From Gemmatimonadales bacterium (GTDB taxonomy: Bacteria > Krumholzibacteriota > Krumholzibacteriia > LZORAL124-64-63): a DNA stretch of 64,000 bases. Of the stretch, positions 315 through 22,588 are shown piece after piece (the first letter of the stretch is position 1; every line of letters begins with the position of its first letter). The DNA lies in NCBI GenBank assembly GCA_019038745.1, contig JAHOYV010000046.1, positions 32,431 through 96,430 on the forward strand. Reading direction: 5' to 3'. Under the pieces are notes generated by a model. The model saw only the letters and a list, made by a program, of their open reading frames with translations, was not told the origin of the DNA and did not search any database. The position numbers and the translations under genes are program-made.

Positions 315-316
315 GC

Positions 317-2608: not shown

Positions 2609-2681
2609 CCAGCCCCTCGGACCGCCCTGAAACAGACCTAGATCAAAATCAGGGCCGAATTACTTAACTTATTGTTTTTCG

Positions 2682-2710
2682 TTGATTTAGGAATGTTATT
2701 TGCTTATAAT
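2682..2710 (+). promoter_or_regulatory. sigma70-type promoter of the cytochrome operon
   Basis: TTGATT (2682-2687), 17 nt spacer, TATAAT (2705-2710) in an AT-rich intergenic region. Confidence 0.75.
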
Positions 2711-2713
2711 CTT

Positions 2714-2731
2714 TCGTGAAACAATTAACAA
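2714..2731. promoter_or_regulatory. Rex-like operator (NADH/NAD+ sensing repressor site)
   Basis: TCGTGAA-ACAA-TTAACAA versus Rex consensus TTGTGAA-N4-TTCACAA (2 mismatches); overlaps the predicted transcription start. Confidence 0.6.
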
Positions 2732-2762
2732 CACACCTTTTGTCCCTGAATAGGCAGGAATC

Positions 2763-3782
2763 ATGAAAAACATCATCCTAATCCTCGCCGTGGTCGCCCT
2801 GGCAGCCCCCAGCTTCGCGCAAATCTCCCCTGCTCCTCTTGGCCAGGAGGCTGAAATATTCTGGTCCCACGCACCCTATGAAATGGGCGAATGCTCCATC
2901 TGCCACCAGAACAGTGATCCGAACAACCCTGGTGAATTGATCTCCGGAGTGAATGAGCTCTGCTTTTCCTGTCACGATATCTTCCAGGAGATGTTGGGGG
3001 AATTCGAGAACGTCCACTCGCCGGTAGAGAACTCCTGCATCGATTGCCATAACCCTCACAACTCACTCTACGGCAAGCTGCTGAACCTTGATACGGCCAA
3101 CCTTTGCGGAACCTGCCACGATGATATTATGGACGGGGTTCGGAATCACAAGGTCCAGCACGATGCCATCACCCAGGGCGATGCCTGCCTGACCTGCCAC
3201 GATGCCCACGCCACGAACGTGCAGGCCATGCTGCGGGCCCTGCCCTACGACTTGTGCGTCGACTGCCACGGTAAGGACGGCATGACCGATGAGCAGGGAC
3301 GTCCAATGACCAACCTGAAGAGCCTGATTGAGGGAGCCCACATGAGCCACGGCCCGGTAGAAAACAAGGACTGCTCATCCTGTCACTTCACGCATAGCGG
3401 TGACAACTTCAGGATGTTGACCGAATCCTACCCTGCCAAGTTCTATGCTCCCTACGAGGAAGAGAACTATGCGCTCTGCTTCAACTGCCACGAGAGCAAT
3501 GTTTTCACTTCCGAGTTCACCAGTACCTTGACCGGCTTCCGGGACGGCGACAACAATCTGCATTATATTCACGTAAACAAGGCCCGCCGCGGACGCACCT
3601 GCCGCTCCTGCCACGAAGTACATGCCTCACCGCAGGAACATTTGGTCCGTGACGGAGTACCTTACGGTTCCAGTGGATGGGTCCTGAAGATCAACTTCGA
3701 GAAACTTGAAAATGGTGGATCCTGCGCGAAAACCTGTCACCCGACCAAGCCCTACGACCGGGAGATGAACGCCTCACAATGA
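2763..3782 (+). CDS. Periplasmic ~10-heme cytochrome c (doubled-CXXCH family)
   Basis: Sec signal MKNIILILAVVALAAPSFA; 9 CXXCH plus terminal CAKTCH; paired CxxCHxxH...LCxxCH units. Confidence 0.92.
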   Translation: MKNIILILAVVALAAPSFAQISPAPLGQEAEIFWSHAPYEMGECSICHQNSDPNNPGELISGVNELCFSCHDIFQEMLGEFENVHSPVENSCIDCHNPHNSLYGKLLNLDTANLCGTCHDDIMDGVRNHKVQHDAITQGDACLTCHDAHATNVQAMLRALPYDLCVDCHGKDGMTDEQGRPMTNLKSLIEGAHMSHGPVENKDCSSCHFTHSGDNFRMLTESYPAKFYAPYEEENYALCFNCHESNVFTSEFTSTLTGFRDGDNNLHYIHVNKARRGRTCRSCHEVHASPQEHLVRDGVPYGSSGWVLKINFEKLENGGSCAKTCHPTKPYDREMNASQ

Positions 3783-4666
3783 AAGCCGGCTGGGCAAAGC
3801 TCCATTGTGTGAAATCAAATATGAGGGTGCATTGGCGCACCCTCAATGGAAAATGGCTATGTCTGGCCTTTACGTTGGCCCTGCTGGGCGTGGTCTCTGC
3901 TCCCGCTTCTGATCTTGCTTTCACCTTCATCGCCGAAGGCGATCTTCTGCCTGATATGGAACTGGACAGCGCCCGCGGGGGATCCGCCGGTTATCTTGGC
4001 GGGGAAGATTCCCAGGCCCGAGTCTTCGCGTTTGTGAAGGACGGCCGCGTCAGTTCCAACGAATTTCTGGAAACGATGGCCGGATTGCATGAGGAATTTT
4101 TGGGACGCCCAGTGAGCTGGTCATTGGTTGTCTCCAAACGTTGCTCTCCTGCCTGGATTGATACCGTGTGCAACCGCTGCCCGGATGTTTCGGTCCTGAT
4201 AGACAAGGATGACAAACTGTACGGAACTCTGGGAGTCCCCCTGACTCCCGTGGTTGGGATCGGGGATGGGGATCGGATCCTGCGGGCCTATTTAACCTAT
4301 CGCAAAATCAACTACCAGGCCCTGATTTCCGCCCACGTGAAATTCATTCTGGGCGACATCGACCAGGCCGAATTGGATCTGCTCCTGAACCCCCATGGTC
4401 GGATGCGGGACACGGTAGCCGGCAGCTCCGCCCGTAAGCTGAAGCTGGCCCGCCTATTGTTTGACAAGCAGAAGTTCGATCTGGCCATCAAGCAAGTGGA
4501 AAGCGCACTCAGCGAGCAACCGAACCTCCCGGAGGCCTACGAGCTGCTGGTCGAGATCCGCCTCGCCGGCGGAGACGAGGCTGGAGCCGCCGAGGCCCGG
4601 GAAAAAGCAGATGCATTGGCTGACTCGACAGCCGGTTCCGCCGAATCAAATGGAGACGGCAACTGA
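3779..4666 (+). CDS. Exported redoxin/thioredoxin-fold + TPR protein lacking CXXC active site
   Basis: Hydrophobic signal-like segment; GDLLPDMEL...VLIDKDDKLYGTLGVPLTP redoxin-like pattern; C-terminal TPR-like helices; ATGA overlap with upstream gene; exact start uncertain. Confidence 0.6.
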   Translation: MKAGWAKLHCVKSNMRVHWRTLNGKWLCLAFTLALLGVVSAPASDLAFTFIAEGDLLPDMELDSARGGSAGYLGGEDSQARVFAFVKDGRVSSNEFLETMAGLHEEFLGRPVSWSLVVSKRCSPAWIDTVCNRCPDVSVLIDKDDKLYGTLGVPLTPVVGIGDGDRILRAYLTYRKINYQALISAHVKFILGDIDQAELDLLLNPHGRMRDTVAGSSARKLKLARLLFDKQKFDLAIKQVESALSEQPNLPEAYELLVEIRLAGGDEAGAAEAREKADALADSTAGSAESNGDGN

Positions 4667-4726
4667 CCCCGAGGACTCGCCCCCATCGTTGTCGGACCTT
4701 GATTTTCACCAACAAGAGGAGTCTGT

Positions 4727-5395
4727 ATGCCCTCCCGGACGACCTGTTTGAGGATAACCACCCTGGCGGCTCTTTGCCTGCTGTCGACCGCTACGGCATG
4801 GTCGGGTGTTGAGGATTCCGTCCACGATTTCCGTACTGAATTATCCATTAACGAGGTCTGCGTCGTTTGCCACACCCCGCACAACGCGGTCGACCCCGCA
4901 GCGGCCGGCCTGGACTACGCACCCCTGTGGGGCCACGAGTCCACAGCCGGAGTGTACACCTTGTACTCCAGTGCCTCCCTCGACCATACTCCGGGGCAAC
5001 CGGACGGCAGTACCAAGCTGTGCCTGAGCTGCCACGACGGTTCCATCGCCATCGATAACTACGGCGGCACAACCACCGGCACCGTTTTCGTGGATGATGC
5101 GACTTTCGACGGTTCACCGGGATCCGCCTCGGGCAGCGCCCTGGATTTCGGAACGAACCTGGACAACGACCACCCCGTCTCGTTCAGCTACGATGCGGTG
5201 GCCACTGCGGATCCGGAAATCCTGCCCTCGACCACGGCAACACCCATCGGGGGCACCATCGCCAGCCGATTGCTGGTCGACGGCAAGGTCCAGTGCTCAT
5301 CCTGCCACGATGTGCACGATGTGGACGGCAACCCCAGTCTGTTGGTGGTCACCAACGATGGCAGCGCCCTTTGCCTGGTCTGCCACGACAAATGA
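4727..5395 (+). CDS. omcE: OmcE-like tetraheme cytochrome c (candidate nanowire subunit)
   Basis: Signal peptide; 4 CXXCH; motif order HDF..VCVVCHTPHNA..PLW..TLYSS..CLSCHDG..GTNLDNDHPVSF..QCSSCHDVHD..GSALCLVCHDK matches my recollection of G. sulfurreducens OmcE; strong RBS GAGGAG. Confidence 0.8.
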   Translation: MPSRTTCLRITTLAALCLLSTATAWSGVEDSVHDFRTELSINEVCVVCHTPHNAVDPAAAGLDYAPLWGHESTAGVYTLYSSASLDHTPGQPDGSTKLCLSCHDGSIAIDNYGGTTTGTVFVDDATFDGSPGSASGSALDFGTNLDNDHPVSFSYDAVATADPEILPSTTATPIGGTIASRLLVDGKVQCSSCHDVHDVDGNPSLLVVTNDGSALCLVCHDK

Positions 5396-6480
5396 GATCC
5401 ACAGCGAACAAAGTTCTGCTGATCGTACTTCTGAGCCTATCACTGGGTCTTCTTTTGAGTGGCTGCACCACCGCGCCCGGGCCATCGCTGAAGGAGGCGG
5501 TTTTCTACCCCAGCCCGCCGACCTCTCCTCGTCTGCAGTACCTGACCCACTATTCCGGCGCCGAGCAGGTAACCATCCAACCGGGAACCGCTTCCCGCTT
5601 TCTGTTCGGTGACTCAGCCCCCACCGAAGCCCTGTCCAAGCCCTACGGGATGGCCCTGCACGGCGGCAAACTTTACGTTTGTGATACAAAGTTAAATTCA
5701 CTAGTGATCTTCGACATCGCACAACACAGGTTTGGTTATACCGGACTTCAGGGCAGCGAACGCCTGCGCAAGCCCCTGAACCTCTGCGTGGACAACCAGG
5801 GCAACAAATTCGTGGCCGACGCCCTGCGCGGGGAAATCGTGGTATTCGATGAGAACGATGCCTGGACCACCGTTTTCGGCGGCAACCTGCTTCAGCGCCC
5901 GGTGGATGTGGCCTGGCTCGACGGCAAACTGTACGTTTGCGATGCGGACGCCTGCACCATAGTCGTTTTCGACGCGACCACCCATGAAAGGGTCACCGTC
6001 TTCGGTGGCAAGGGAGACGACCCGGGACAATTCGCGCGGCCCACCAATCTGGCTTTGGATCCCGAGGGGAACATCTACGTCAGCGACACCATCAACGGCC
6101 GTATCCAAAAGCTGGGTCCCGATGGGAATCACGTGGCCACCTTCGGCTCCCGCGGTGACCGTCCCGGGACCTTCGCCCGACCCAAGGGTGTGGCGGTGGA
6201 TCCGGAAGGCCAACTCTATGTAGTCGATGCCGCCTTTGAAAACGTCCAGATCTTCGCTCCTGCCGGCAGGATGCTGATGGACTTCGGCGGACCCGGCGCA
6301 GACCCGGGCAATCTGGTCCTTCCCGCCCAGGTGATCATCGATACCGATCACTTGTCCCTTTTCCGCGAACTGATCGAACCCGGTTTCAAGGCCGAGCATC
6401 TGGTATTGGTATCCAGCCAGTACGGACCTCGCAAAATCAGCGTCTACGCGTACGGCCGCTCCGAGGGGAGCGGCCACTGA
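5392..6480 (+). CDS. NHL-repeat six-bladed beta-propeller lipoprotein
   Basis: Start ATG 5392 (ATGA overlap); lipobox LLLSGC; repeats such as FARPTNLALDPEGNIYVSD and FARPKGVAVDPEGQLYVVD. Confidence 0.9.
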   Translation: MRSTANKVLLIVLLSLSLGLLLSGCTTAPGPSLKEAVFYPSPPTSPRLQYLTHYSGAEQVTIQPGTASRFLFGDSAPTEALSKPYGMALHGGKLYVCDTKLNSLVIFDIAQHRFGYTGLQGSERLRKPLNLCVDNQGNKFVADALRGEIVVFDENDAWTTVFGGNLLQRPVDVAWLDGKLYVCDADACTIVVFDATTHERVTVFGGKGDDPGQFARPTNLALDPEGNIYVSDTINGRIQKLGPDGNHVATFGSRGDRPGTFARPKGVAVDPEGQLYVVDAAFENVQIFAPAGRMLMDFGGPGADPGNLVLPAQVIIDTDHLSLFRELIEPGFKAEHLVLVSSQYGPRKISVYAYGRSEGSGH

Positions 6481-7139
6481 TGGGATGGAAGGGCGCGGCA
6501 GCACTCATCCTGCTGGGAATCCTGGCGGCCGGCTGCAGTGGCCCAACCCGGGACAAGTGGCTGACTGTCTTCTTTGATGATCCTCCCGTCGAACAAATAT
6601 CCAATCCCGTGGATTCCGACTTCCAGGCTACATTCACCGCACCCCGCGTAGCCGCCGCTGCAGCGGGAACAGCACACGCCCCCTTCGAAGCAGGCGCCTG
6701 TCAGGTGTGCCACGATCTTTCCGGCAGCACTTCCTTCCCCGGAGGCGGCGGCTGGCCGGGACGCGAACCTGACGCAGGAAGGGCCGACCAGTCCAAGCAC
6801 CCGGAGACTGCGGGCTCTGCCCGACTCCGTCTGCCCGGAGACCGCCTCTGCGGCGGTTGCCACAACGATCTCGACGTTGAAACCCTGGCCCAAACCAACC
6901 TCGTTGTACACGCTCCACTAGCTACCGGGGACTGCTGCTTCTGCCACGATCCGCACCGCAGTCCGTATCCACATCTCTTGAAACAGGCTGACAGTTCGGT
7001 CCTTTGCGTGGCCTGTCACGATCAGGAAGCGGCCGCACGTCGCTGTCACCATCCGGGGGCCGGGATACAATCCTGTGTATCCTGCCACCAGCCCCACGCC
7101 TCGGCCCAACGTTTCCTTCTCCGCCGGGAGGAGCCATGA
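6480..7139 (+). CDS. Pentaheme lipoprotein cytochrome c (doubled CXXCH)
   Basis: Lipobox LAAGC; CQVCH, CGGCH, CCFCH, CVACH, CVSCH. Confidence 0.88.
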   Translation: MGWKGAAALILLGILAAGCSGPTRDKWLTVFFDDPPVEQISNPVDSDFQATFTAPRVAAAAAGTAHAPFEAGACQVCHDLSGSTSFPGGGGWPGREPDAGRADQSKHPETAGSARLRLPGDRLCGGCHNDLDVETLAQTNLVVHAPLATGDCCFCHDPHRSPYPHLLKQADSSVLCVACHDQEAAARRCHHPGAGIQSCVSCHQPHASAQRFLLRREEP

Positions 7140-9127
7140 GGTTCCGAAACTTCATCTCGGCCAACTTGTTTCAATGGTTGACGGGCTTACTGCTGAGCAT
7201 CGTGCTTGCGACGGGCGCCCTGGCCAACGGCCCCGTCTACCTGGACGAGAGCTCACCCCAAAGGAAAATCGTGGCCTTGGATAACCTGGGCGGTTGGAGT
7301 GAATTCTTCGTGCGTGGGTCCCGCACACGAACGGGGGATTTTTCCCTGGATGAGACCATCCTGGCCCCGGGGATCCACCTGGATACCGCCGGTGGTCTGT
7401 ACGAGCGACAGCTGTTGACCTTTCGGGCCGGGGGAACCCTCAGCTACCAGCATCGCAGCCTGGACGGCACCGTGGAAAATTCCGACGATCTGTCTTTCCA
7501 GGATTTCGCGGGGAACCTGGATCTGCTCCCCGAAAAGCCTCTCAAACTGCACCTGTTCGGGAATCGCACGCACGGCTGGCATTCCTCGCCTTACAAAAGC
7601 AGTACGCGAACCCGCTCCACGGCTTGGGGAATCGGTGCGGATCTCGGCTTGGCTGAATTGCCCTCGACTCTGACCTGGTCACGAGAAGAATATCTGGAGG
7701 AATACTATTCCGGAGACCGGATCACGACCCGGGACCGTCTCCGCTTCGGGGTAAAACGAAGCAACGGGCCCATTCGCGGCTCCTTGACGATGCGCCACGA
7801 AGCCTTCCGCAAAAACCTCCAGCCCCAGAACTACAGCACGGACGGAGCCGACGGGCGCATCTCCTATCGACCCGGAAAAACCCTTGGCTTGGCCGGTTCC
7901 ATGCACTGGCTCCACCGTTACGGTTCCCGGGAACATACCAACTTCAGCACCCGCGCTACCACCCGCTGGAATCCCCGTCCCGACTTCGGAGGCCAGGTCG
8001 AAGCCGAACATCGACGCCTGCGTCCCGGCGGAAAAGACGTGCCCGTTGTCGCCGCCAACTCGGGAGCCCTCTCGGTTCGGCATCTGTTGTACGGGAGCCT
8101 AGAAACCACCATGGGCATGAACCTGCAAGACGAAACCAGCCGTTTGGATGATCTCGAAGTCGGAACCTTGCGCAGAACCAGCGGCCATCTCCGCCTGGAC
8201 TACAGGAGACGCCTGGCTGTTGGCGCTTTACAGCTTTCCACCAGTCGAACCTTGCTGCGTCAGGATCGGACCGGCACGGAAACCGAGCGCCCGGTGTCCA
8301 ACGAGGGGCATGTCCTGCCCGATTTGGCCGAAGTACGTCTTGAAAATCCGGACGTGGTGCCCGGTTCGGTGGTAGTTACCGACGCAACCGGGTATGTCGT
8401 CTACACGGAGAACCTGGACTTCGCCCTGACCGAAGTGGGAGGCTTCACCCTCTTGAATCGGATCCCCACCGGGGCCATCGCCGAGGACGAGCGGATCCAG
8501 GTGGATTATCGGTACCTGCTTTCTCCCGACCTGGTTTTTGACGCGGCGACCTGGAGTTTGGCCGCCCGCTTCGACGGCAACCGGGTCTGGTCGGTTTGGA
8601 CCCGGCACCAGGACACCGACGAAACTCCGGTTTCCGGATCCTCCGAAACCGGGTTGCAGGACCGAACCCGGAATGTGGCGGGCGGACTCCTGCGCCGGGG
8701 ACGGGTCACCCTGAGACAGGAATACGAAACTCATCGCCTGGCAGAAACCCGGTTCAAAACAAATCGTCTGCAGTTGGATACCCGGTTCCGACCCGGCCGC
8801 CGCTGGCGGGCTTCCGTGGGGGCCAACCACACGTGGTCCCGAACGGTCGCCCCACGACGCACCCAACGATACCTGCAGCTGAACGCCCGGACCGCATACG
8901 CCGGCGCCGGCGGTTCGACAGCAAGTCTGGAATCCTGGTTTCGCTGGAACGAGCGGGAAGACGGAATCGCCGCCCCCGGCGACGGCCTGTACGGTGGCCG
9001 ATTGCGCTACACACGTCGCTGGCGAGCCCTTACCCTTGAAGCGGAAGTCACCCTGCAAAGCACCGACCGCAACGAGATCGACGACGACCGGCTTGTCTTC
9101 CGCACCGGATTACGGAGGGTCTTCTGA
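7136..9127 (+). CDS. Large outer-membrane beta-barrel protein (~663 aa)
   Basis: Start ATG 7136 (ATGA overlap, GGAGGAG RBS); signal peptide ending ALA; alternating amphipathic strands; C-terminal Phe (RRVF). Confidence 0.75.
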   Translation: MRFRNFISANLFQWLTGLLLSIVLATGALANGPVYLDESSPQRKIVALDNLGGWSEFFVRGSRTRTGDFSLDETILAPGIHLDTAGGLYERQLLTFRAGGTLSYQHRSLDGTVENSDDLSFQDFAGNLDLLPEKPLKLHLFGNRTHGWHSSPYKSSTRTRSTAWGIGADLGLAELPSTLTWSREEYLEEYYSGDRITTRDRLRFGVKRSNGPIRGSLTMRHEAFRKNLQPQNYSTDGADGRISYRPGKTLGLAGSMHWLHRYGSREHTNFSTRATTRWNPRPDFGGQVEAEHRRLRPGGKDVPVVAANSGALSVRHLLYGSLETTMGMNLQDETSRLDDLEVGTLRRTSGHLRLDYRRRLAVGALQLSTSRTLLRQDRTGTETERPVSNEGHVLPDLAEVRLENPDVVPGSVVVTDATGYVVYTENLDFALTEVGGFTLLNRIPTGAIAEDERIQVDYRYLLSPDLVFDAATWSLAARFDGNRVWSVWTRHQDTDETPVSGSSETGLQDRTRNVAGGLLRRGRVTLRQEYETHRLAETRFKTNRLQLDTRFRPGRRWRASVGANHTWSRTVAPRRTQRYLQLNARTAYAGAGGSTASLESWFRWNEREDGIAAPGDGLYGGRLRYTRRWRALTLEAEVTLQSTDRNEIDDDRLVFRTGLRRVF

Positions 9128-10176
9128 TGCTCCGGTGGAATACACACCGACACGCGGGGATAGGTTTCCTGCTGGTGGGTACCTGGTTGGCGGCAAATAG
9201 TTTCCCCTTTCCTGCACAAGCCCAGGACCTTGTCTTTCCTGCCCCACCGGCCGAGGCCCGACTGGCCTACCTCGGTGAGATTTCCGACCTGGAGGCGTTC
9301 AGCAAGCCCCGAAACCTCATCGGCAAACTGACGGATTGGATCGCCGGAGGCAGACAGAAGCCACAATTGATTCAGCCTCACGGAGTAGGCCTGGGCGATG
9401 ACGCTCTGCTGGTAGCGGACCCGGAAACGGGCTTCGTTCACTACTTTTCCCTGGCTGATTCCACCTGGAAACGGATCCCGGCGAAGAACAGGCTGCACTC
9501 GCCAGTGGATGCCGCATCGGGACCGGACGGGGTGATCTTCATCTCGGATTCCGGGGCAGCCCAGGTAGTGGCCTGTGACAAGAACGGCGAAATCCTCTTT
9601 GCCTGCGACGGCCCTTTTGTCCGTCCCACCGGTCTGGCCTTCGACCAAGGCAGCGGACGCCTGCTTGTCGCCGATGCCGCCGCCCACCACCTGGTTTGGG
9701 TTGATCCGGACGGTAGCCGGTTGGGAACAATCGGGTGCCGGGGCACGGAGCCCGGGGAGTTCAACTTCCCCATCGACATTGCACTGACCTCCACGGGAAA
9801 CATTCTGGTCCTGGATGCCCTTAACTTTCGAATCCAGGTTCTGGATGGAGACGGGAATTTCGTGCGGGAATTCGGAGTCCAGGGCGATTCACCCGGCCGT
9901 TTCTCCAGACCACGCGGCCTTTGTGCCGACGCGGCAGACAACATCCTGGTTACGGACGCCCTGCAGGACAATTTCCAGATCTTCGACGCCACCGGACGTT
10001 TGTTACTGGCTGTGGGCGGCACGGGCCGGGATCCTGGATCGTTCTGGATGCCCGCGGGAATCTGCGCCGGGACCGATGGTCGCATTTTCGTAGCCGACGC
10101 CTACAATCGCCGGGTCCAGGTCTTTGCCTACCTGGCATCGTCCGGGCAGGACGGGCCGGAAGAAGGATCAGAATAA
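9127..10176 (+). CDS. NHL-repeat beta-propeller protein
   Basis: Signal peptide; repeats EFNFPIDIALT, FSRPRGLCAD, FWMPAGICAG..IFVADAYNRRVQVF. Confidence 0.9.
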   Translation: MLRWNTHRHAGIGFLLVGTWLAANSFPFPAQAQDLVFPAPPAEARLAYLGEISDLEAFSKPRNLIGKLTDWIAGGRQKPQLIQPHGVGLGDDALLVADPETGFVHYFSLADSTWKRIPAKNRLHSPVDAASGPDGVIFISDSGAAQVVACDKNGEILFACDGPFVRPTGLAFDQGSGRLLVADAAAHHLVWVDPDGSRLGTIGCRGTEPGEFNFPIDIALTSTGNILVLDALNFRIQVLDGDGNFVREFGVQGDSPGRFSRPRGLCADAADNILVTDALQDNFQIFDATGRLLLAVGGTGRDPGSFWMPAGICAGTDGRIFVADAYNRRVQVFAYLASSGQDGPEEGSE

Positions 10177-11897
10177 TGATGAGCCGAATCTCTCGTGTTT
10201 GTCTCTTGCTGACAGGGCTGGCGTGTTTGGCCTGGTTGATCCCAGCCGTCCAGGTCGGAAGCGCCCGGGCGGATGTCGTGAACACCCGCCACAACCTCTC
10301 GGTCAGTGGTCCGGGTACGGTGAAGGCCCTTGAGGAGACCCGAGTCTGCGTTTTTTGTCACACGCCACACTCGGCTTCGACCGAGGCCCAGCTCTGGAAT
10401 CGCAACTCTTCGGCCGCCGGCTACACACCCTACACCTCCTCCACCCTGGACGCCCTTGCCGGCCAACCAACCGGATCCTCTCGATTGTGTCTGGGTTGCC
10501 ACGATGGAACCATCGCCCTGGGATCGGTGATCAGCGAATCGACGGTAATCACCATGGCCGGCGGAGTAACGGTGATGCCGGACGGTGACACCAATCTGAA
10601 CGTCGACCTGCACGACGACCATCCGTTTTCCTTCCTCTATGACGCCGCCTTGGCTGCCTCCGACGGCCAACTCATCGACCCGGCCGTCCTTCCGGCCGAA
10701 ACCGTCCTGGACCCCTCCGGCGAAATCCAGTGCACCACTTGTCACGATCCGCACGACGACGCAAACGGCTTCTTCCTGGTGTTGCCGGGGGACGACGCCG
10801 GCCTCTGCGAAGCCTGCCACAGTCCCGACCAGTGGGCTTCGGCATCCCACAACACTCCACTGCTCCGTAAAATCCATTCCCCAGCCGCCACCGCGACGGC
10901 AACCGACTCCGCACACGACAAGGGCATACCATCGACCAACAGCTGTCTGAACTGTCACGACGCTCACGGCGGCGACGGCGGTGCTCGTCTGTTGGCCTTC
11001 GCCCGGGAAGAAGAAGGGTGCATTGTCTGCCACGGAGTCACCGGGCCCGCTTCGGACATCGAATCGGAACTGGGAAAGTTCTCCGCCCACCCGGTGGCGC
11101 TGACCGACGGCGTGCACGACCCCAGAGAGGCCCTACCGATAGCTTCGGCCCACGTAGAATGCGTTGACTGCCACAATCCCCATGCCACCCGCGCCGAGGC
11201 AACCAATGCCCCCGACGTACCCGGTGCACTTTCCGGAGTGCGGGGCCTGAACGGGGACAACGTGACGGTCGAGGAAGCGGCCTACACCTACGAGGTCTGC
11301 TACAAATGCCATGCCGGATCCGCTTGGAGACCGGGCCCGGCCACACCGCGCCAGGTGGTGCAATCCAACTCGATGTTGGAATTCGATCCTGGCAACCCCT
11401 CCTTCCACCCGGTGGAGGGACCGGGAAACAACCCCAACGTGCCCAGCCTGTTGCACCCCTACACCGAAACCAGCATCATCACCTGTACCGACTGCCACAA
11501 CAGCAGCGGCGATTCCCCCGCGGGCCTCCACGGATCGGATTTCCCCCACCTGTTGGGCTGGAACTACGAAACCGCCCAGGGCACCATCGAAAGCTACGAA
11601 GCCTACGAACTTTGTTACCGCTGCCATGACCGGACAACGATATTATCCAACGCCAGCTGGCAATCCCACCGCAAGCATGTGGTCAACGAGGGCTTCTCCT
11701 GCAACTCCTGCCACGATCCACACGGTATCAGCGCCACCCAGGGCGACGAATCAAACCACTCCCGGCTGATCAATTTTGATCTGACCTACGTGGAACCCGA
11801 AGATGATACCGGTTTGCTGGAATTCGTGGACAACGGGGGATTCGGCACCTGTACCCTGAAGTGCCATGGGGATAATCATCGCGACAAGAACTGGTAG
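10176..11897 (+). CDS. ~12-heme cytochrome c with N-terminal OmcE-like tetraheme domain
   Basis: Start ATG 10176 or 10179 (TAATG overlap); signal peptide; 11 CXXCH plus terminal CTLKCH; first four hemes colinear with the 4727-5395 product. Confidence 0.9.
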   Translation: MMSRISRVCLLLTGLACLAWLIPAVQVGSARADVVNTRHNLSVSGPGTVKALEETRVCVFCHTPHSASTEAQLWNRNSSAAGYTPYTSSTLDALAGQPTGSSRLCLGCHDGTIALGSVISESTVITMAGGVTVMPDGDTNLNVDLHDDHPFSFLYDAALAASDGQLIDPAVLPAETVLDPSGEIQCTTCHDPHDDANGFFLVLPGDDAGLCEACHSPDQWASASHNTPLLRKIHSPAATATATDSAHDKGIPSTNSCLNCHDAHGGDGGARLLAFAREEEGCIVCHGVTGPASDIESELGKFSAHPVALTDGVHDPREALPIASAHVECVDCHNPHATRAEATNAPDVPGALSGVRGLNGDNVTVEEAAYTYEVCYKCHAGSAWRPGPATPRQVVQSNSMLEFDPGNPSFHPVEGPGNNPNVPSLLHPYTETSIITCTDCHNSSGDSPAGLHGSDFPHLLGWNYETAQGTIESYEAYELCYRCHDRTTILSNASWQSHRKHVVNEGFSCNSCHDPHGISATQGDESNHSRLINFDLTYVEPEDDTGLLEFVDNGGFGTCTLKCHGDNHRDKNW

Positions 11898-11918
11898 CCG
11901 CCGGGTCAGTCTTCAGGA

Positions 11919-12941
11919 TCAGTCTTCCGGATAACCATCCGGGTTTTCGGACTGCCAACGCCAGGCATCAACACACATCTCGGACAGCCCCTTCTCTGCA
12001 CGCCAGCCGAGCAAGGAAGCAGCCATGGCTGAATCGGCATAACAAGTAGCAATGTCTCCAGCTCGCCGATCGCCAATCCGGTAGGAAATTTCCCGGCCGG
12101 AGGCTTCCCTGCCTGCGGCAATCATCTCCAGGACCGAATACCCCTGGCCGGTGCCCAAATTCACGGCCGTGCAGCCCGGTAATCCAGGCAATTTTTCCAG
12201 GGCGACCAGATGTCCCAAGGCGAGATCAACAACGTGGATATAATCACGGACACCCGTTCCATCCGGCGTTTCGTAATCATCGCCGAAAACAACCACTTCC
12301 TCCCTCAAGCCTACGGCCACCTGCATGACGTAGGGCATCAGATTGTTGGGAATGCCATTGGGATCTTCCCCGATACGTCCACTGGAATGAGCCCCGATGG
12401 GGTTGAAATACCTCAGCAACAAACAGCGCCAGCGATCATCGGCAAGACACTGGTCGCGCAGGATCTCCTCGATGAAATACTTGGTCCGCCCATAGGGGTT
12501 TGTCGTCTGCAGAGGAAAATCCTCGGTGATCGGAACACTAGCCGGATCACCGTAAACAGTTGCCGATGAAGAAAAAACGATGTTCCGGCAATCGTGTTTG
12601 TCCATGGCCTTCATGAGTTCGAATGTACCGTGGAGATTATTCTCGTAGTAGCGCAGGGGTATTTCACAGGATTCGCCAACGGCTTTCAGGCCGGCGAAGT
12701 GGACCACGGCATCGAAAGTGTGTTCCTCGAACACCCTCTCCAAGGCAACCGCATCGCAAAGATCAACCTGACGGAACTCCAGGGATCGGCCGACCAACTC
12801 CTCGACCCGCCGCAGGCTCTCCTGGCTGGAATTGACCAAATTGTCCACAACGACCACATCGTGCCCGGCTTTGAGCAATTCCACGCAGGTATGGCTACCG
12901 ATATAGCCTGCCCCACCGGTTACCAAAATATTCTTTGCCAT
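11919..12941 (-). CDS. galE: UDP-glucose 4-epimerase
   Basis: [50 protein letters not shown]; start chosen 9 nt after AGGAGA. Confidence 0.96.
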
Positions 12942-13099: not shown

Positions 13100-13115
13100 A
13101 TAAATGAGGTTAACA

Positions 13116-13667
13116 ATGTCTGACGTTTCAGAGATCGACAAAGTTCTACGGGAAAACATCCGAATCATGGCGCAGGTCATCACGGAAGTTTGCCAGCGCA
13201 GCACGCGCAAGCAGGTCAGCCCCTCCACATTGTCCAGGAACCAGTTCTATATCCTGAACATCCTGGGCACCAGTGGGGAATTCCTGATCAGCGATCTGGC
13301 ACGGAGCCTGGACATCAGTCCTGCGGCTGCGAGCAAGAACATTGACCGTTTGGAGCAAATGGAATTCGTTGAACGCCGAGCCCGACCCGAGGACCGGCGC
13401 AGCCTTGAAGTGTGCCTGTTGCCCAAGGGCAAAGCCATCGTGGATGAGTTCAAACTCGTAACAATCGAAAAACAAGCCCCGCTCCTGGCCCAGTTCTCCG
13501 CCGAGGAGAAAGTGGTTCTGCTGGACCTACTGCGGAGAATCGTGAAGTACACCGTGAACGAGGAACACAACACCGAATTGATCTGTCTGCAATGCGGTGG
13601 AGCCTGTGGTGAAGAATGTGTCGTCAAAGACGGTATGGGGCCATGCGCCTTGCCGCCAAAACAATGA
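13116..13667 (+). CDS. MarR-family regulator with Cys-rich C-terminal tail
   Basis: wHTH ISDLARSLDISPAAASKNIDRLEQMEFVER..PEDRRS; tail CLQCGGACGEEC..C; GAGGT RBS before ATG 13116. Confidence 0.88.
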   Translation: MSDVSEIDKVLRENIRIMAQVITEVCQRSTRKQVSPSTLSRNQFYILNILGTSGEFLISDLARSLDISPAAASKNIDRLEQMEFVERRARPEDRRSLEVCLLPKGKAIVDEFKLVTIEKQAPLLAQFSAEEKVVLLDLLRRIVKYTVNEEHNTELICLQCGGACGEECVVKDGMGPCALPPKQ

Positions 13668-13725
13668 CCCTGCTCCAAATCCGGCGTGAATTCAGCCGGA
13701 CCAGGAGCGGAACAGGGAGTTGATC

Positions 13726-14655
13726 ATGGTCAGTCGTCGGGATTTCATGAAAATATCGGGAAGTGTGGCCGGAACTGCCGCCGCGTCCCTGGCCGGAGTA
13801 CAAACGGCCTGCGCGTCGGGGCATCACCTCGAACCGGACCGGATCGGGGTTTTGACCGACTACACCGAGTGTATCGGCTGCCGACGTTGTGAATGGGCCT
13901 GCGCCCAGGAAAACGGACTGCCCTTCGGAGACCTGGAATCCTGCGATGATCAGAGCGTCTTCCAGGAAATGCGACGTCCTGACGAGAGGCAGTATACGGT
14001 TGTGAATCGTTACCCGGCTCCCGAGGGTTCGGACAAGCCCCTGGATGTGAAGGTCAATTGCATGCACTGCGAGCATCCGACTTGCGTCTCGGCCTGCATT
14101 GTTGGAGCCCTCAAGAAGGACCCCATGGGGCCGGTGACCTACGATGCCTCGGCCTGCATCGGCTGCCGCTACTGCATGGTGGCTTGTCCCTTCCAGATCC
14201 CTGCCTACGAGTACCATGATCCTCTGACGCCCAAGGTTCTGAAGTGCACTCTCTGCACCGAACGCACGCTCGAGGAAAACAAAATGCCGGCCTGCGTTGA
14301 GATGTGTCCCAAGGAGGCCCTGACCTTCGGTCGCCGGGAGGATTTGCTGGACTTGGCTCGCGACCGCATCCGCCGCAATCCCGACCGCTACCTACCCCAC
14401 ATCTTCGGAGAATACGACGGTGGCGGCACTTCTTGGCTCATGATCGCCGACCGTGACTTTACCGAGGTGGATTTGCCTGAATTGTCTGACCGCAGCGCAG
14501 CGGAAATAACCGAGGGCATTCAACACGGTATTTTCAGGGGTTTTACAGGTCCCCTGATGGTCTTTGGACTCGTAAGCATCCTGGGCAAATCCATGGGTGA
14601 CCAGGAAGGTCGACTTGACCAGGAAGGTCAGCGTAAGGAGGGCGACAATGAATAA
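13726..14655 (+). CDS. hybA: Tat-exported 4Fe-4S electron-transfer subunit (HybA/HmcB/NrfC family)
   Basis: SRRDFMK Tat motif; CIGCRRCEWAC, CMHCEHPTCVSAC, CIGCRYCMVACP, KCTLC..PACVEMCP; C-terminal TM helix. Confidence 0.88.
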   Translation: MVSRRDFMKISGSVAGTAAASLAGVQTACASGHHLEPDRIGVLTDYTECIGCRRCEWACAQENGLPFGDLESCDDQSVFQEMRRPDERQYTVVNRYPAPEGSDKPLDVKVNCMHCEHPTCVSACIVGALKKDPMGPVTYDASACIGCRYCMVACPFQIPAYEYHDPLTPKVLKCTLCTERTLEENKMPACVEMCPKEALTFGRREDLLDLARDRIRRNPDRYLPHIFGEYDGGGTSWLMIADRDFTEVDLPELSDRSAAEITEGIQHGIFRGFTGPLMVFGLVSILGKSMGDQEGRLDQEGQRKEGDNE

Positions 14656-15943
14656 CCCAATCAACGGCAGCAGCGCAGGCGCCCTGCCCCTGAATGCCCC
14701 CGAGGCAACCGGCCATGGCGACCATGAGGTCTGCCTCCCCCTGGCCGAGCAGGGCCGGGTCCCCTTCATCACGCCGGGAGTCATGGTACTCATGGGCTTT
14801 GCGGCTATCGGGCTCCTCGTTTTGGCCGCCCGGTTCATCTTCGGCATCGGTGCGGTGACCAACCTGGACAACCAGTACCCCTGGGGACTGTGGATCGGCA
14901 TCGACGTGGCTACCGGAGTGGCCCTGGCCGCCGGTGGATTCACAACCGCCTTCATCGCCCACGTCCTGCACCAGAATCGTTACCACGAAATCGTCCGGCC
15001 CGCCTTGTTGACGGCGATGCTCGGCTACACTTTCGTGGCCCTGGGTGTGGTCGTGGATCTGGGCCGCTACTACAACATTTGGCACGTGCTGGTGCCGAAG
15101 TACTGGCAGGGTAATTCAGCCCTCTTCGAAGTGGGTATGTGCGTCTGCATCTACTTGACGGTGCTGTACATCGAGTTCCTGCCCATCGTGTGCGAGCGAT
15201 TCATCGGCCGGATCAACCTGCCGGGCCCCCTTGGAGCATTGAACGGCCCACTGGATAAGATCCTACGCCTGGCTGATGCAGCCTTGAACAAAACCATCAC
15301 GTTCTTCATCATCATGGGCGTCGTCCTGTCCTGTGCTCACCAGTCATCGCTGGGTACCCTGATGGTCATCGCCCCGACCAAGCTACACGCGCTTTGGTAC
15401 ACGCCGATCCTGCCGCTTCAGTTCCTGCTTTCAGCCTTCGCAGTGGGCCTGGCAATGGCCATTTTCGAGTCGCTGATCGCCTCAAGGTCGTTCAAACGGC
15501 CCTTCGAGATGAGCGTTCTGTCGCCGCTGGGACGGATGATTCCCTTCCTGCTGACGATCTATTTCGCAGCCAAGCTCATTGACCTGGTCAACCGCGGCGT
15601 CTTGCCGCTGGCCCTGGAGCCGACCCTCCAGGCAGCGACTTTCTGGATCGAGATCATCGGCGGAGTGCTCCTGCCCATTTTCATCTTCCTGATCCACGGC
15701 TTGCGCCGCCGGCCCGGTTGGCTATTCGCTGCCGCGGCCATGGTGGTCCTGGGCGTGGCCCTGAACAGGGTCAATGTATTCATCATCGGATATAAACCGT
15801 TGTTCGGTGACGGACCCTACGTTCCGGCCATTCCCGAGGTCCTCCTGACCATCGGCTTCATCTCCATCCTGACCCTGGTCTACCGGGCCTGGGTATTCAT
15901 CTTCCCGATTCTCCCGGTAGAAGGAGGTCACGACAATGCGTAG
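14648..15943 (+). CDS. hybB: NrfD/HybB-family quinone-interacting membrane subunit
   Basis: GAVTNLDNQYPWGLWIGIDVATGVALAAGG, VDLGRY, HQSSLG motifs; about 10 TM helices. Confidence 0.88.
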   Translation: MNNPINGSSAGALPLNAPEATGHGDHEVCLPLAEQGRVPFITPGVMVLMGFAAIGLLVLAARFIFGIGAVTNLDNQYPWGLWIGIDVATGVALAAGGFTTAFIAHVLHQNRYHEIVRPALLTAMLGYTFVALGVVVDLGRYYNIWHVLVPKYWQGNSALFEVGMCVCIYLTVLYIEFLPIVCERFIGRINLPGPLGALNGPLDKILRLADAALNKTITFFIIMGVVLSCAHQSSLGTLMVIAPTKLHALWYTPILPLQFLLSAFAVGLAMAIFESLIASRSFKRPFEMSVLSPLGRMIPFLLTIYFAAKLIDLVNRGVLPLALEPTLQAATFWIEIIGGVLLPIFIFLIHGLRRRPGWLFAAAAMVVLGVALNRVNVFIIGYKPLFGDGPYVPAIPEVLLTIGFISILTLVYRAWVFIFPILPVEGGHDNA

Positions 15944-17123
15944 CTTTTCTGCAACAAGACTCATTCTCCTGATGGTGATGTTGATAATCTTCCTGGTTCC
16001 ATTGGCCGCATTCGGAGCCGCATCCGGGACAGCGTCCGACCAAGTGGTAGATAAGGATCACCCCCAGGACAAGATGCATCAGGAAGAAACCGGTCGGAAA
16101 TTGCAGTCCTGCCTGGACTGCCACAAGTGCAAACGCCCCACTCGAAAAGACCCCTGTCTGGTGGCTTGCCCACGCTACGAGAGTCACTTCTTCAGCCAGC
16201 AGCAGGTAGAGGAAAGCCCGGAAATCATCATCATCGATCAGCTTTCCGAATTGTACGGGTCCGTTGTCTTCGCCCACCGCTTACACGCGGAAATGGCCGA
16301 GATGGCGGGCGGTTGCGAAACCTGCCACCACTATTCCGAGCAATCCGGGGTCATCCCACCTTGCCGTGAATGTCACGATGAAGAGCGTAACGTAGTGGAC
16401 CTGTCCAAGCCCGCCCTGAAGGGGGCCTACCACCGGCAGTGCATGAATTGCCACTTGGACTGGAGCCATGAAAACGCCTGCGGCTTCTGCCATGAGCAAG
16501 CCACCGACGAGTTGAGTGCAGTCACACCCGACACCACCGATATCGTGGGCATCCCGCATCCGATCATTGCGGCCACGCCTACCTACACCTACAACACGCC
16601 CCACGAGGACGGCCCCATCGTCACCTTCCACCACAATGACCACGTGGATATGTTTGGTCAGAAGTGTGTGGACTGCCACCGGGGAGACAGTTGCAGTCGC
16701 TGCCACGATGCCGATCGAGAAGAGGCGAAGCCGCTGAATCACATCACGAGCTGCTGCTCCTGCCACGGCAAGCGGGATTGTACGTTCTGCCACAAGGATG
16801 AGGCGATGCCCAACTTCGAGCATGGGTTGTCCACCGGGTGGTCGCTGGAGCCGTATCACACGGGCAAGGACTGCACCTTGTGCCACGGCAAGCCGGATTC
16901 CTTCCGTAAGCCGGAGACCACATGCACTTCCTGCCATATCCACTGGGAGGATGGAGCATTCAACCACGCCGTTACCGGTTTGACGCTGGACGACGACCAT
17001 ATCGACAGCGATTGCGTGGATTGTCACGTTAAGTTGGAGTTTACGATCACTCCCACTTGTGACAACTGCCACGACGAACCCATGCTGCCGGAAAAAATCC
17101 CCGGTCGATTGAAACTGCATTGA
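15936..17123 (+). CDS. 13-heme cytochrome c3-family (HmcA-like) protein
   Basis: Signal peptide; 13 CXXCH; c3-type motifs VVFAHRLH and LKGAYHRQCMNCH. Confidence 0.92.
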   Translation: MRSFSATRLILLMVMLIIFLVPLAAFGAASGTASDQVVDKDHPQDKMHQEETGRKLQSCLDCHKCKRPTRKDPCLVACPRYESHFFSQQQVEESPEIIIIDQLSELYGSVVFAHRLHAEMAEMAGGCETCHHYSEQSGVIPPCRECHDEERNVVDLSKPALKGAYHRQCMNCHLDWSHENACGFCHEQATDELSAVTPDTTDIVGIPHPIIAATPTYTYNTPHEDGPIVTFHHNDHVDMFGQKCVDCHRGDSCSRCHDADREEAKPLNHITSCCSCHGKRDCTFCHKDEAMPNFEHGLSTGWSLEPYHTGKDCTLCHGKPDSFRKPETTCTSCHIHWEDGAFNHAVTGLTLDDDHIDSDCVDCHVKLEFTITPTCDNCHDEPMLPEKIPGRLKLH

Positions 17124-17181: not shown

Positions 17182-18156
17182 TTAAAAACCCACTACATAC
17201 TGAATGACGGCCAAGTCCTCTAGATTGTCCCCGAACTGGTACTCGCAACGAATCTCGGCCCCCTCGCGCAGAACCCAACCACCACCCAGGCACAGGCGAT
17301 TCGTTTCAGGGTAGACAGCAGCGGGCGAATAGTTGCCATAGCGGGCAAAGACACTGTACTGCTCGAAACGATACAAACCCTGTGCGTAGTATCCCTCGTT
17401 AGTCTCCGGGTGGTCGGTGTTCTGGCCGAGTTTATGCGAAATGAATTCTCCCTTGGCGGAGAAAGCCCCCAATTCGAGCTGTCCATCCACACCCAACAAT
17501 GACTGAAATTCATCGCCGGCTTCATTGGCAACCGAGGCGTATGAAACGCCTACCTCTACCCTCTCGGTGGGCAGAAATCCCAAGCGACTCCCGAAGGCCA
17601 GGTCGGCCGTTTCGGTCTCGGAATCGAGTCCGTTGGTCACATAGAAAACGGCATTGAACGGACCATTCTCCAGATAGCTCATCATGCCCAAATCATTCCA
17701 ACCGTCGTGAGTCCCGGCCACCGCGATTGGCCCGGTTACAAGCTGGCGGTCGATTGAGGGATAGACCAGCCAGTCAATACCAAACGGAACATCGAACTGG
17801 CCAATGATTATGCCGGCGTGCTCAATCGAGGCTTCATTGAAATGGGTCTCAGCGTCGCCGAAGAGACGGAAATCAATGGTCATGGCGCCGAGTACGAAAG
17901 ACTCGCCCGCGGGATCATAGCCCATGGCCACACCCAGATCGATGCAATCGTCAATACTCGCCGCGATATCCACCTCTACTTGTCCCCAAAAAAATCCGGT
18001 ATCTCCCTCTTCGGAATCATCAACGACAACCTGCTGAAAATCAGCAAATCCACAGACGACCAACTCCGGTGCATCCTGCGCGACGGCCGAAGCGGTACAA
18101 AAACACACAACAAATACAAAGGTCAGAATATCGGTACAGCCTTTGCGATTTCCCAT
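17182..18156 (-). CDS. Outer-membrane porin (OprO/P-like beta-barrel)
   Basis: Signal peptide; IIIGQFDVPFGIDW motif typical of this porin class; amphipathic strands; C-terminal YVVGF. Confidence 0.75.
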   Translation of the reverse strand: MGNRKGCTDILTFVFVVCFCTASAVAQDAPELVVCGFADFQQVVVDDSEEGDTGFFWGQVEVDIAASIDDCIDLGVAMGYDPAGESFVLGAMTIDFRLFGDAETHFNEASIEHAGIIIGQFDVPFGIDWLVYPSIDRQLVTGPIAVAGTHDGWNDLGMMSYLENGPFNAVFYVTNGLDSETETADLAFGSRLGFLPTERVEVGVSYASVANEAGDEFQSLLGVDGQLELGAFSAKGEFISHKLGQNTDHPETNEGYYAQGLYRFEQYSVFARYGNYSPAAVYPETNRLCLGGGWVLREGAEIRCEYQFGDNLEDLAVIQYVVGF

Positions 18157-19025: not shown

Positions 19026-20195
19026 CTACTCGACACCCGGCCCAAAGCTGGCATGACGCTCCCACTTGCGGTCGTCGTCGTGACAGTTGTCACAGGTCGT
19101 ATGCTGTCCATACCCCTCGGAGTGGCAGTCCGAGCAATCTGAATCCAGATGCACCTCGTCCAGCACAACACCCGTCACATTGTGGTTGAAGTGTTTCTCG
19201 TCGAAACCATCGAAGTGACAGGTCTCGCAACGAGGATCATTGGCCTGGTACTTGCCCGGGTCATGGTGGCAGTCATTGCACTGCAGCACCTTGTGATAGG
19301 CCTCCAGTGGCCAACCGATATCCGCGTGATCAAACAGATCATTGGAATTCCGACCGTGGCACTCCTTGCACCCTTTTTCCTCGTCATGGCACTGATAACA
19401 AGTGTCATGCAAGTCGATGTCCTCGATCAGCCCCAGGGGATGAGAATCTGAGCCATGTACGTGGCAGCTGGCACAGGTCTCATTCTGGTGGCAGACACTG
19501 CAATCACGGTTGTACTGTTCAACGTGGTTATGGTGATGGAAAGGAACGACGCCTCCCTCTTCATAACTGGTTTCAAACAGGATCAGATCCTTAACTATCA
19601 GCGGGGCCTGGTGAATCAGATCGGGCAGAGCATCGATCTCGGCCTTTGACATGCCACCTTCCTTTTTACGGTGACACCACTCGCAATGAGTTTCGGTGTC
19701 CCACTCGGAGTGGCAGTTGAGACATTGGCGATGGTAAGCAGCCTTCAAACTGGGTTGAATCTTGCTTTTTACGCCTTCGGGGGCATGACATTCCTTGCAG
19801 GCGGGATGCCCTGCCGTAGCCGGTGCGAAGTGGTGGCAGTTCACGCAACCGCCCCCCATCTCGGACATCTGGGCATGCTTCTCGTGGCTGAAGTACACCG
19901 GGTCGTAGACCTTCTCCAGTTCATCCAGAACCATAACTTTTTCCTGGGGCAAGCCCGATTCACCCTTCTTCACCTTGCTTCTGATGCAGAAATTCTTGCT
20001 CAGACAAAGATCGGAATGGGTGGGAAACTCGCAGGTATGACAAAGCGAGCAGGCCAGATTTTCTCCTGCCTCCGGGACATAATCCTCGAAGGCCAAGAGA
20101 GGGGAGGCCGCAAAAATCAAGACCCCTCCCATAATCAGGGCCAAGGCCCTCCCGGCAGAGCGCCGGCCAAATCCGTGAATACTTCCAGTCCGCAT
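19026..20195 (-). CDS. 13-heme cytochrome c3-family protein (paralog of 15936-17123)
   Basis: Signal peptide; 13 CXXCH colinear with the other copy (FSHEKH, LKAAYHRQCLNCH, FNHNVTGVVLDEVH). Confidence 0.92.
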   Translation of the reverse strand: MRTGSIHGFGRRSAGRALALIMGGVLIFAASPLLAFEDYVPEAGENLACSLCHTCEFPTHSDLCLSKNFCIRSKVKKGESGLPQEKVMVLDELEKVYDPVYFSHEKHAQMSEMGGGCVNCHHFAPATAGHPACKECHAPEGVKSKIQPSLKAAYHRQCLNCHSEWDTETHCEWCHRKKEGGMSKAEIDALPDLIHQAPLIVKDLILFETSYEEGGVVPFHHHNHVEQYNRDCSVCHQNETCASCHVHGSDSHPLGLIEDIDLHDTCYQCHDEEKGCKECHGRNSNDLFDHADIGWPLEAYHKVLQCNDCHHDPGKYQANDPRCETCHFDGFDEKHFNHNVTGVVLDEVHLDSDCSDCHSEGYGQHTTCDNCHDDDRKWERHASFGPGVE

Positions 20196-20197
20196 GG

Positions 20198-20344
20198 TTA
20201 ATCCTTTCCGGCGGTTTTCTTACCGTTCTTCTTGGGAGCCCCGATAGCTTTCGAGAACACCACAAACGAAATGAAGTAGAGCAGGACTACTATGTATTCC
20301 AGGCCCTTCGTTGCGAAAATATCCAGGTACGTGTATTCAGCCAT
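20198..20344 (-). CDS. HmcD-like small membrane protein (48 aa), absent from ORF track
   Basis: Manual translation MAEYTYLDIFATKGLEYIVVLLYFISFVVFSKAIGAPKKNGKKTAGKD; TKGxEY plus single TM helix; AAAGGT RBS; stop 2 nt before the cytochrome start. Confidence 0.8.
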   Translation of the reverse strand: MAEYTYLDIFATKGLEYIVVLLYFISFVVFSKAIGAPKKNGKKTAGKD

Positions 20345-20400
20345 GATGGCACCTTTCCCGGGCACGGCCCCTTCGAACAGGGACCGGCCGATCTTCCGAT

Positions 20401-22547: not shown

Positions 22548-22588
22548 CCTCAAACCTTTCCGATCAAGGGGAATCGACTGAAACCACC

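Follow-up and report, generated by a model that had tools for sequence, protein, structure and literature searches.

In a 64,000-nucleotide stretch of Gemmatimonadales bacterium DNA (assembly GCA_019038745.1, contig JAHOYV010000046.1; hereafter the window), a 12-haem cytochrome with the working name F12 is encoded at 10176..11897 (+) as the last gene of a cassette. We propose that F12 may be the cell-proximal terminal subunit of an OmcE-type nanowire, acting as its anchor or terminator and as an electrical adaptor, with a probability of roughly 0.42. Passages of a recent report on the omcE cluster (Petersen et al., mBio 2026, PMC13712944) name as an open question the secretion, initiation, termination and cell attachment of cytochrome nanowires and the way in which electrons are loaded onto them. 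F12, with its subunit-like head inside an omcE cassette, is a concrete and widely conserved candidate for nanowire anchoring.

The open reading frame (ORF) was found where an earlier note, made from the sequence letters, had placed it, and its translation gave 573 aa. One base is common to the start ATG at 10176 and to the TAA that ends the preceding NHL gene (TAATG), and the stop codon lies at 11895-11897. Residues 1-32 (10176..10271 (+)) read as a Sec-type signal peptide with a probable signal peptidase I site between SARA and DV (..SARA/DVVNTRHNLS) and without a lipobox; a helix at residues 2-28 covers this region in the AlphaFold2 (AF2) model. Eleven CXXCH motifs were found at residues 58, 105, 186, 211, 257, 282, 329, 375, 437, 480 and 509, and a CX3CH motif (CTLKCH) at residues 559-564 brought the total to 12 haem sites. 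The eight haem motifs that the earlier note had counted beyond the head are thus obtained with CX3CH included, whereas CXXCH alone gives seven. In an alignment of 186 F12 relatives all 12 motifs were retained at 98-100%, the CX3CH motif at 98-99%. Pfam and NCBIfam returned generic multihaem models alone, and an ESM Atlas look-up gave nothing beyond generic cytochrome c3 / Paired_CXXCH clusters.

Head, linker and octahaem tail of F12

Residues 33-216 (10272..10823 (+)), which carry haems 1-4, were delimited as an OmcE-like tetrahaem head from sequence, fold and invariant columns. As had been noticed from the letters, F12 is colinear over residues 1-215 with the 222-aa product of the stand-alone OmcE-like tetrahaem gene at 4727..5395 (+), the presumed filament subunit (36% identity, E of 3e-33, spanning all four haem motifs). 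By phmmer against the PDB, F12 matched the OmcE structures 7tfs (E of 1.7e-25 over query residues 13-216) and 9yuq (E of 1.4e-18), and the 222-aa protein matched 9yuq (E of 1.2e-21) and 7tfs (E of 3.2e-18). The AF2 model of F12, built with 120 sequences, had a mean predicted local distance difference test score (pLDDT) of 76.8 and a predicted template modelling (TM) score of 0.73; confidence was high in the tail (80-97), moderate in the head and low in the linker. Foldseek returned 7tfs alone for this model (E of 8.7e-6, TM score by target 0.63), and in the VIA exhaustive alignment the best match was 7tfs_A (Z of 11.2, root-mean-square deviation (rmsd) of 3.3 A, 173/202 residues aligned); a second VIA structural search added nothing beyond 7tfs. 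The F12 head is a true OmcE-family domain. In the genome of the window, the only OmcE-like sequences found were this head and the 4727-5395 product.

The non-motif histidines H39, H65, H149 and H193 of the head were kept in at least 98% of the 186 relatives, and their equivalents H7, H26, H123 and H171 were conserved across 61 stand-alone OmcE-like proteins. The N-terminal arm H39-N40-L41 (H39 codon at 10290-10292 (+)) was invariant in 120 F12 sequences. The 4727-5395 product ends 2 aa past the haem-4 motif, as do 50 of 60 stand-alone relatives. Unlike these subunits, which end there with a free acceptor face, F12 runs on for 357 aa beyond haem 4.

In a tree built from 137 rows (76 heads, 61 stand-alone sequences), two label changes sufficed to explain the distribution of the two types, with four long-branch F12 heads placed on the stand-alone side. 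Such a tree argues for old paralogy between the F12 head and stand-alone OmcE rather than repeated fusion. Among 51 genomes having both, mean identity was 49% between heads and 37% between stand-alone subunits, and the head was the more conserved of the two in 1233 of 1275 genome pairs. The earlier description of F12 as chimeric holds in this evolutionary sense; as a special chimera it does not, F12 being a standard component of the omcE cluster.

The head is followed by an inter-module linker (residues 217-256, 10824..10943 (+)) with W220, H225 (codon at 10848-10850 (+)) and an Ala/Thr-rich stretch. W220 and H225 were invariant in 120 F12 sequences, and the pattern W-x4-H stood right after haem 4 in 181 of 186 members, H225 being ten residues past the point at which the subunits end. 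Fifteen stand-alone octahaem relatives lacked the W220-H225 segment, their alignment to F12 beginning at 'PWxH'/H247. Because the segment is absent from these proteins and W-x4-H is present in nearly all fused ones, H225 is specific to the fusion. The Ala/Thr stretch (SPAATATATDS, at about residues 231-248) had an AF2 pLDDT below 50. The previously described architecture, in which an OmcE-like head is joined by an Ala/Thr linker to eight further haems, is supported.

Residues 33-225 contain exactly nine histidines conserved in the family (39, 62, 65, 109, 149, 190, 193, 215 and 225) and four haem motifs. Past the head, conserved non-motif histidines were found in the 186 relatives at 225, 264, 305, 314, 326, 336, 411, 452, 498, 501, 516 and 568, and F12 as a whole has 16 of them for 12 haems (17 with the 'PWxH' position included). 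H146, the ninth histidine of the head in this copy, was considered as a self-capping ligand and ruled out, as it is conserved in 3% of relatives.

The C-terminal octahaem module (residues 257-573, 10944..11894 (+)) carries 7 CXXCH motifs and the terminal CX3CH (11850-11867), with a small beta-sheet at its end. When residues 217-573 were compared with the PDB by sequence, no match was obtained at E up to 10. A HMMER scan with the same residues yielded 1352 representatives at E of 1e-3 or below and 241 at 1e-30 or below. Among the best 150 of these matches, 66 resembled F12 in having an OmcE head and a length of 470-700 aa, while many of the short matches were fragments. About 15 were complete octahaem proteins of 361-400 aa that have a signal peptide and share with the F12 tail the 7 CXXCH and the CX3CH at the end. 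In several much longer proteins (900-1760 aa) the octahaem module forms the C-terminal end. By these sequence comparisons, the octahaem tail is a module in its own right that also occurs alone. The stand-alone octahaems colinear with the tail were P0200, P0222, P0225, P0248, P0253, P0257, P0258, P0260, P0264, P0265, P0268 and P0269; several stand-alone octahaem proteins finish with basic or 'KKWPW'-like tails.

The architecture was widespread. When 5.8 billion protein clusters were searched and 8000 candidates scored, 6169 of these matched F12, and the best 120 cluster matches were each 548-592 aa long with 93-100% query coverage. With one genome per species, at least 615 stretches matched F12, of which at least 578 encode a relative. 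Relatives were found in Planctomycetota, Bacteroidota, Calditrichota, Ignavibacteriota, Verrucomicrobiota, Gemmatimonadota, Nitrospirota, Acidobacteriota, Pseudomonadota, Thermodesulfobacteriota and other phyla. The F12 architecture is ancient, very common and not specific to this genome, and the copy in the window is an ordinary member of its family by sequence. Among 31 genomes related to that of the window (its own counted), only 3 had F12, which indicates a patchy distribution among relatives. In the sole same-family genome with F12, the OmcE-like gene match (G011:C23:6273-6821) carries one in-frame TGA; an error in sequencing, decay to a pseudogene or a gene split in two could each account for it.

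Cassette, co-folding and the proposed role

The cassette spans 4727-11897 on one strand in the order OmcE-like gene, NHL propeller, pentahaem cytochrome, barrel, NHL propeller and F12. The first NHL beta-propeller is a lipoprotein (5392..6480 (+); lipobox LLSGC; Pfam NHL with E of 1.7e-21), as is the 219-aa pentahaem cytochrome (6480..7139 (+); lipobox LAAGC; 5 CXXCH; Paired_CXXCH_1). The large outer-membrane beta-barrel (7136..9127 (+), 663 aa) was recognised by AF2 and Foldseek and has an inserted conserved domain at about residues 399-461. The second NHL beta-propeller (9127..10176 (+), 349 aa; Pfam NHL with E of 3.1e-30) has a signal peptide and no lipobox. Lipoboxes were thus present in the pentahaem protein and one NHL protein and in none of F12, the barrel, the OmcE-like protein and the second NHL protein.

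For synteny, 80 F12 loci were kept, and their ORFs were called and compared with the genes of the window. The fused F12 ORF was intact in 77 of them; of the other three, one has the gene split, one has a fragment of it at a contig end and one encodes a variant with 10 haems. In 61 of the 71 loci having at least 1 kb of upstream sequence, the gene directly upstream of F12 was an NHL gene. The order seen in the window was the common one, with a barrel of ~680 aa, and an alternative arrangement puts the NHL-F12 pair first. In the 41 loci that extend 8 kb or more to either side, a stand-alone 4-haem OmcE-like gene was found within 10 kb in 37, a recognisable barrel in 22 and a pentahaem gene in 19; the barrel count is low, as BLAST with the divergent barrel of this window misses many barrels. 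The earlier note had asked whether the fusion is commonly found without a stand-alone OmcE-like gene, and this co-occurrence indicates that it is not. F12 was single-copy per cassette in the loci examined. We conclude that F12 is a typical member of the known, recently described omcE cluster.

The barrel model (34 sequences) had a pLDDT of 88.2 and about 30 long strands, and its best Foldseek match was MtrB (6r2q_B, E of 1.4e-8, TM of 0.45/0.46), followed by Cir, LptD and pilus ushers. When residues 33-573 of F12 were co-folded with the stand-alone subunit, scores of 0.62, 0.59 and 0.59 were obtained (median 0.59), compared with 0.02 for the best of 3 controls; the runs shared at least 94% of contacts, and the pLDDT of the partner was at least 78. 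The mark applied is passed by 116 of 157 solved complexes and by 2 of 215 mismatched pairs, counts that apply only roughly here, as user-made alignments were used. Co-folding with the tetrahaem subunit, suggested earlier as a check, therefore passed its mark, but weakly, and the pass may reflect the solved OmcE-OmcE interface.

In passages of PMC13712944, the OmcE interface is described as an unsatisfied haem that is completed by a histidine of the next subunit, and the ideal anchor as an OmcE-like protein with nine histidines and four haems; the candidate of those authors is encoded outside the cluster. The nine conserved histidines and four haems in residues 33-225 of F12 agree with this description. 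The earlier note had supposed that such a fusion could nucleate, anchor or cap the filament, a role that we likewise infer. The N-terminal arm H39-N-L of the F12 head would complete the haem left open by the final OmcE subunit, in the way that neighbouring OmcE subunits join one another. In the head itself, the open haem, which would normally receive the histidine of the next subunit, might be filled in cis by H225. With this acceptor haem filled, no further subunit would add, and the polymer would be capped. The haem chain would go on through the eight haems of the elongated MtrA-like tail, which would lie in, or just under, the MtrB-like barrel, so that the filament would be fixed to the outer membrane. 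The tail might also connect the filament with electron donors in the periplasm, of which the pentahaem lipoprotein is a possible one. F12 would thus work by the same logic as the terminator pilins of chaperone-usher systems, but with histidine-haem ligation instead of donor-strand exchange. In this detailed form, in which an F12 self-capped by H225 with its MtrA-like tail lodged in the MtrB-like barrel ends growth, fixes the wire and feeds it with electrons, the proposal is a tentative one. The anchor reading would account for the invariant N-terminal arm, the fusion-specific W and H, the fixed C-terminus of the subunit and the near-obligate stand-alone companion.

Several observations weigh against this anchor reading. 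The assignment of the N-terminal histidine as the inter-subunit ligand of OmcE was drawn from the 7tfs model, which starts one residue before it. H39 and H225 were taken as candidate haem ligands from their place in the sequence. The histidine count does not discriminate, given the surplus of conserved non-motif histidines over 12 haems. The MtrA match of the F12 model in the VIA alignment (6r2q_A, model residues 137-533, 223/265 aligned, 26% identity, rmsd of 4.1 A) had a Z of 8.7, only just above the level (near 8) that VIA calls common. Foldseek on the whole model gave no significant match for the tail and did not recover MtrA. As the MtrA alignment is colinear, the OmcE-like head would face the periplasm if F12 were seated in the barrel like MtrA in MtrB. 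Either the head might be outside with the tail threading the barrel, or the filament might pass through the barrel with F12 beneath. The MtrB match of the barrel (TM of 0.45) had an rmsd of 13.9 A and was one of 218 barrel-like matches. Co-fold scores of 0.60 or below were reached by only 18 of the 157 solved complexes, yet by both passing mismatches, and the pass is weak in this respect; because the OmcE-OmcE interface is already solved, it may show mere likeness. The co-fold support concerns the pair as a whole and not a particular face. Four of the 41 well-covered loci (L052, L057, L063 and L069) had no stand-alone OmcE-like gene nearby. In the literature searched, no cryo-electron microscopy, proteomic or genetic data on the F12 family were found, and none placing F12 on a filament.

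The main alternative, which part of this evidence would suit, is that F12 serves only as the MtrA-like conduit in a porin-cytochrome complex, with its 12 haems lined up as a single wire across the barrel. Its OmcE-like head would then be a reused tetrahaem module of common ancestry, and F12 would hand electrons to OmcE filaments or to other acceptors on brief contact, without entering the polymer. MtrA was the second-best structural match and spanned head and tail, the remaining VIA matches having Z of 5.6 or below; the DmsE/MtrA profile TIGR03508 matched F12 partially (52.1 bits, E of 6e-14, with a cut-off of 192.2 and a best stretch confined to residues 472-520); and the barrel resembles MtrB best. 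The octahaem module evidently works with other heads or none, as in the 361-400-aa proteins and the 900-1760-aa giants, the cassette can do without the stand-alone gene in the four loci above, and the surplus of conserved histidines would permit H39 and H225 to be internal ligands. However, a conduit leaves unexplained the invariant H39-N40-L41 arm, a fusion-specific W-x4-H placed exactly at the end point of the subunit and the near-constant company of the stand-alone subunit. The co-fold score, though weak, was also far over the controls. We regard the conduit as rather unlikely.

The eight extra haems might instead belong to the distal tip of the filament, where F12, secreted before the subunits, would enlarge the area available for contact with minerals or partner cells. 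According to passages of PMC13712944, no tip candidate is present in omcE operons, and an OmcE-like tip with more exposed haems is wished for; F12, with an OmcE-like face, eight extra haems and no lipid anchor, would answer this description. Against a tip stand the tight coupling of F12 to barrel-side genes (the NHL gene directly upstream in 61/71 loci, and the start/stop overlap here) and the resemblance of its tail to a membrane-spanning wire. In addition, a blocked C-terminal face would confine F12 to the open-haem end, which would be proximal in a base-growing polymer. The data favour a cell-proximal anchor or terminator over a distal tip, which we hold to be improbable. More improbable still is that F12 has no link with the OmcE filament and instead forms a homopolymer of its own or stores electrons in the periplasm. 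Both polymerisation elements of OmcE (the N-terminal arm histidine and the four-haem core) are kept, and long multihaem 'wires' are described as common in such organisms (passages of PMC11492766), but the 357-aa extension begins where subunits must end, and F12 was strictly single-copy per cassette in the loci examined.

Neighbouring genes and further observations

The same-strand block opens with a 339-aa ten-motif cytochrome (2763..3782 (+); 9 CXXCH and one longer-spaced motif), relatives of which, with 7-13 haems, flank the cassette in many loci. Between it and the OmcE-like gene lies a 295-aa TPR-containing protein (3779..4666 (+)) with weak TPR matches below Pfam cut-offs; used as a query, it found a match in 1 of the 80 related loci. 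A PrkA-type serine kinase gene (257-2608 (+)) is located upstream of the block. Downstream of the cassette, two paralogous modules were observed at 13104-17123 (+) and 19026-23050 (-), each with a 4Fe-4S protein, an NrfD-type membrane protein and a 13-CXXCH cytochrome, and with a MarR or ArsR-type regulator adjoining. These NrfD modules are candidate quinol-side feeders of the same electron route. Between them, 17182-18156 (-) encodes a 324-aa exported protein with no Pfam match and the C-terminus ..VVGF, which could be a small outer-membrane barrel.

The barrel insert (residues ~399-461) is a beta domain of ~60 aa. Most columns close to invariance in the alignment of 34 sequences fall within it (V414, D428 and Y429), as does Y458, the sole invariant column. 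The insert matched the phage tail-tube model NF052337 weakly (E of 5.7e-5, below the cut-off) and could be a plug or docking domain.

In L057, L063 and L069 a ~1000-aa 24-haem protein takes the place of the stand-alone OmcE-like gene. Proteins of this type with 24 CXXCH, ~1000-1150 aa long (L057:5635-8730, L063:5511-8573, L069:5901-8903 and L049:5280-8750), sit between two NHL genes, in the usual place of the stand-alone OmcE gene, the pentahaem gene and the barrel; their hosts are Sulfuricella-, Sulfurimicrobium- and Thiobacillus-like loci and one Gammaproteobacteria locus. They were considered as tandem OmcE repeats, which was rejected, as mostly the last two profile haems were matched and no clean repeats appeared. 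OmcE-like ORFs of 262-284 aa with 7 CXXCH adjoin other cassettes (starts at L011:13295, L014:12264, L019:3016, L024:12227, L061:19437 and L071:5341), and these may belong to the group described as 'OmcE-like with extra haems' in section 9 of PMC13712944.

A promoter and terminator scan of 2400-12100 gave counts no higher than chance. No RNA dataset was listed as containing this stretch; one marine sediment metagenome DNA run contains it and may be its source.

Comparison with known systems

The published omcE cluster, as described in passages of PMC13712944, comprises two multihaem cytochromes, two beta-propeller lipoproteins, OmcE and a large beta-barrel. The window has this gene set at 4727-11897 in one same-strand block, with F12 as one of the two cytochromes, and differs in that a lipobox was found in only one of the two propellers. 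Two Desulfuromonadales loci (L014 and L024) have the same gene order as the window, with F12 at the end. The passages of that paper on the cluster do not mention an OmcE-like domain at the start of a cluster multihaem cytochrome. In our literature search, the scope of which left out subscription papers, figures and bioRxiv supplements, no statement was found that the 12-haem protein of the omcE cluster has an OmcE-homologous head, and no printed precedent was found in the literature searched for reading F12 as an anchor or terminator. The same passages place the cluster in five phyla; the present loci add Planctomycetota, Bacteroidota, Calditrichota, Verrucomicrobiota, Gemmatimonadota, Acidobacteriota and others. 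The stretches encoding F12 relatives, at least 578 of them, suggest that OmcE-type wiring is far wider in sediments and soils than these five printed phyla.

A similar arrangement has been reported for peat Acidobacteriota, where EET1 'porin-scaffold-cytochrome' clusters are described as syntenic sets of porin, scaffold and multihaem cytochrome genes, with 'OmcE-like' cytochromes of 8-13 haems (bioRxiv 10.64898/2026.05.27.727921). The EET1 cluster is probably the same cassette in other phyla; the text on that cluster says nothing of an anchor or cap role. In Desulfovibrio ferrophilus IS5, the outer-membrane 12-haem cytochrome DFE_449 (PMC5815863) was considered as an F12 orthologue and rejected, since by the tabulated values, the sole basis of this comparison, it has 301 aa for its 12 haems, against 573 aa in F12. 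The same source lists DFE_450 as a protein of 340 aa with 6 haems.

Compared with the OmcE subunits of known structure (Geobacter sulfurreducens, 7tfs; Desulfuromonas soudanensis DSOUD_2954, 9yuq), the F12 head agrees in motif order, in the four extra histidines and in fold. These subunits stop 1-2 residues past haem 4 and polymerise, whereas F12 has 357 more residues, eight more haems and W220/H225, and its head forms a separate, slower-evolving paralogue clade. F12 may share with MtrA of MtrCAB (6r2q chain A) an elongated single-file haem chain, and its gene stands beside that of a very large barrel with MtrB as the best fold match. Unlike MtrA, it has 12 haems and not 10, and no MtrC-like partner; its extracellular partner would be a polymer.

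The analogy with terminator pilins of chaperone-usher pili is raised in passages of PMC13712944. With terminator and anchor pilins such as PapH, F12 would share a proposed logic only, with no relation in sequence or fold. Termination of the PapH type proceeds by donor-strand exchange, whereas F12 would use histidine-haem ligation. If the proposal is true, hundreds of species from more than 10 phyla would have in F12 a histidine-haem equivalent of the donor-strand mechanism that terminates chaperone-usher pili.

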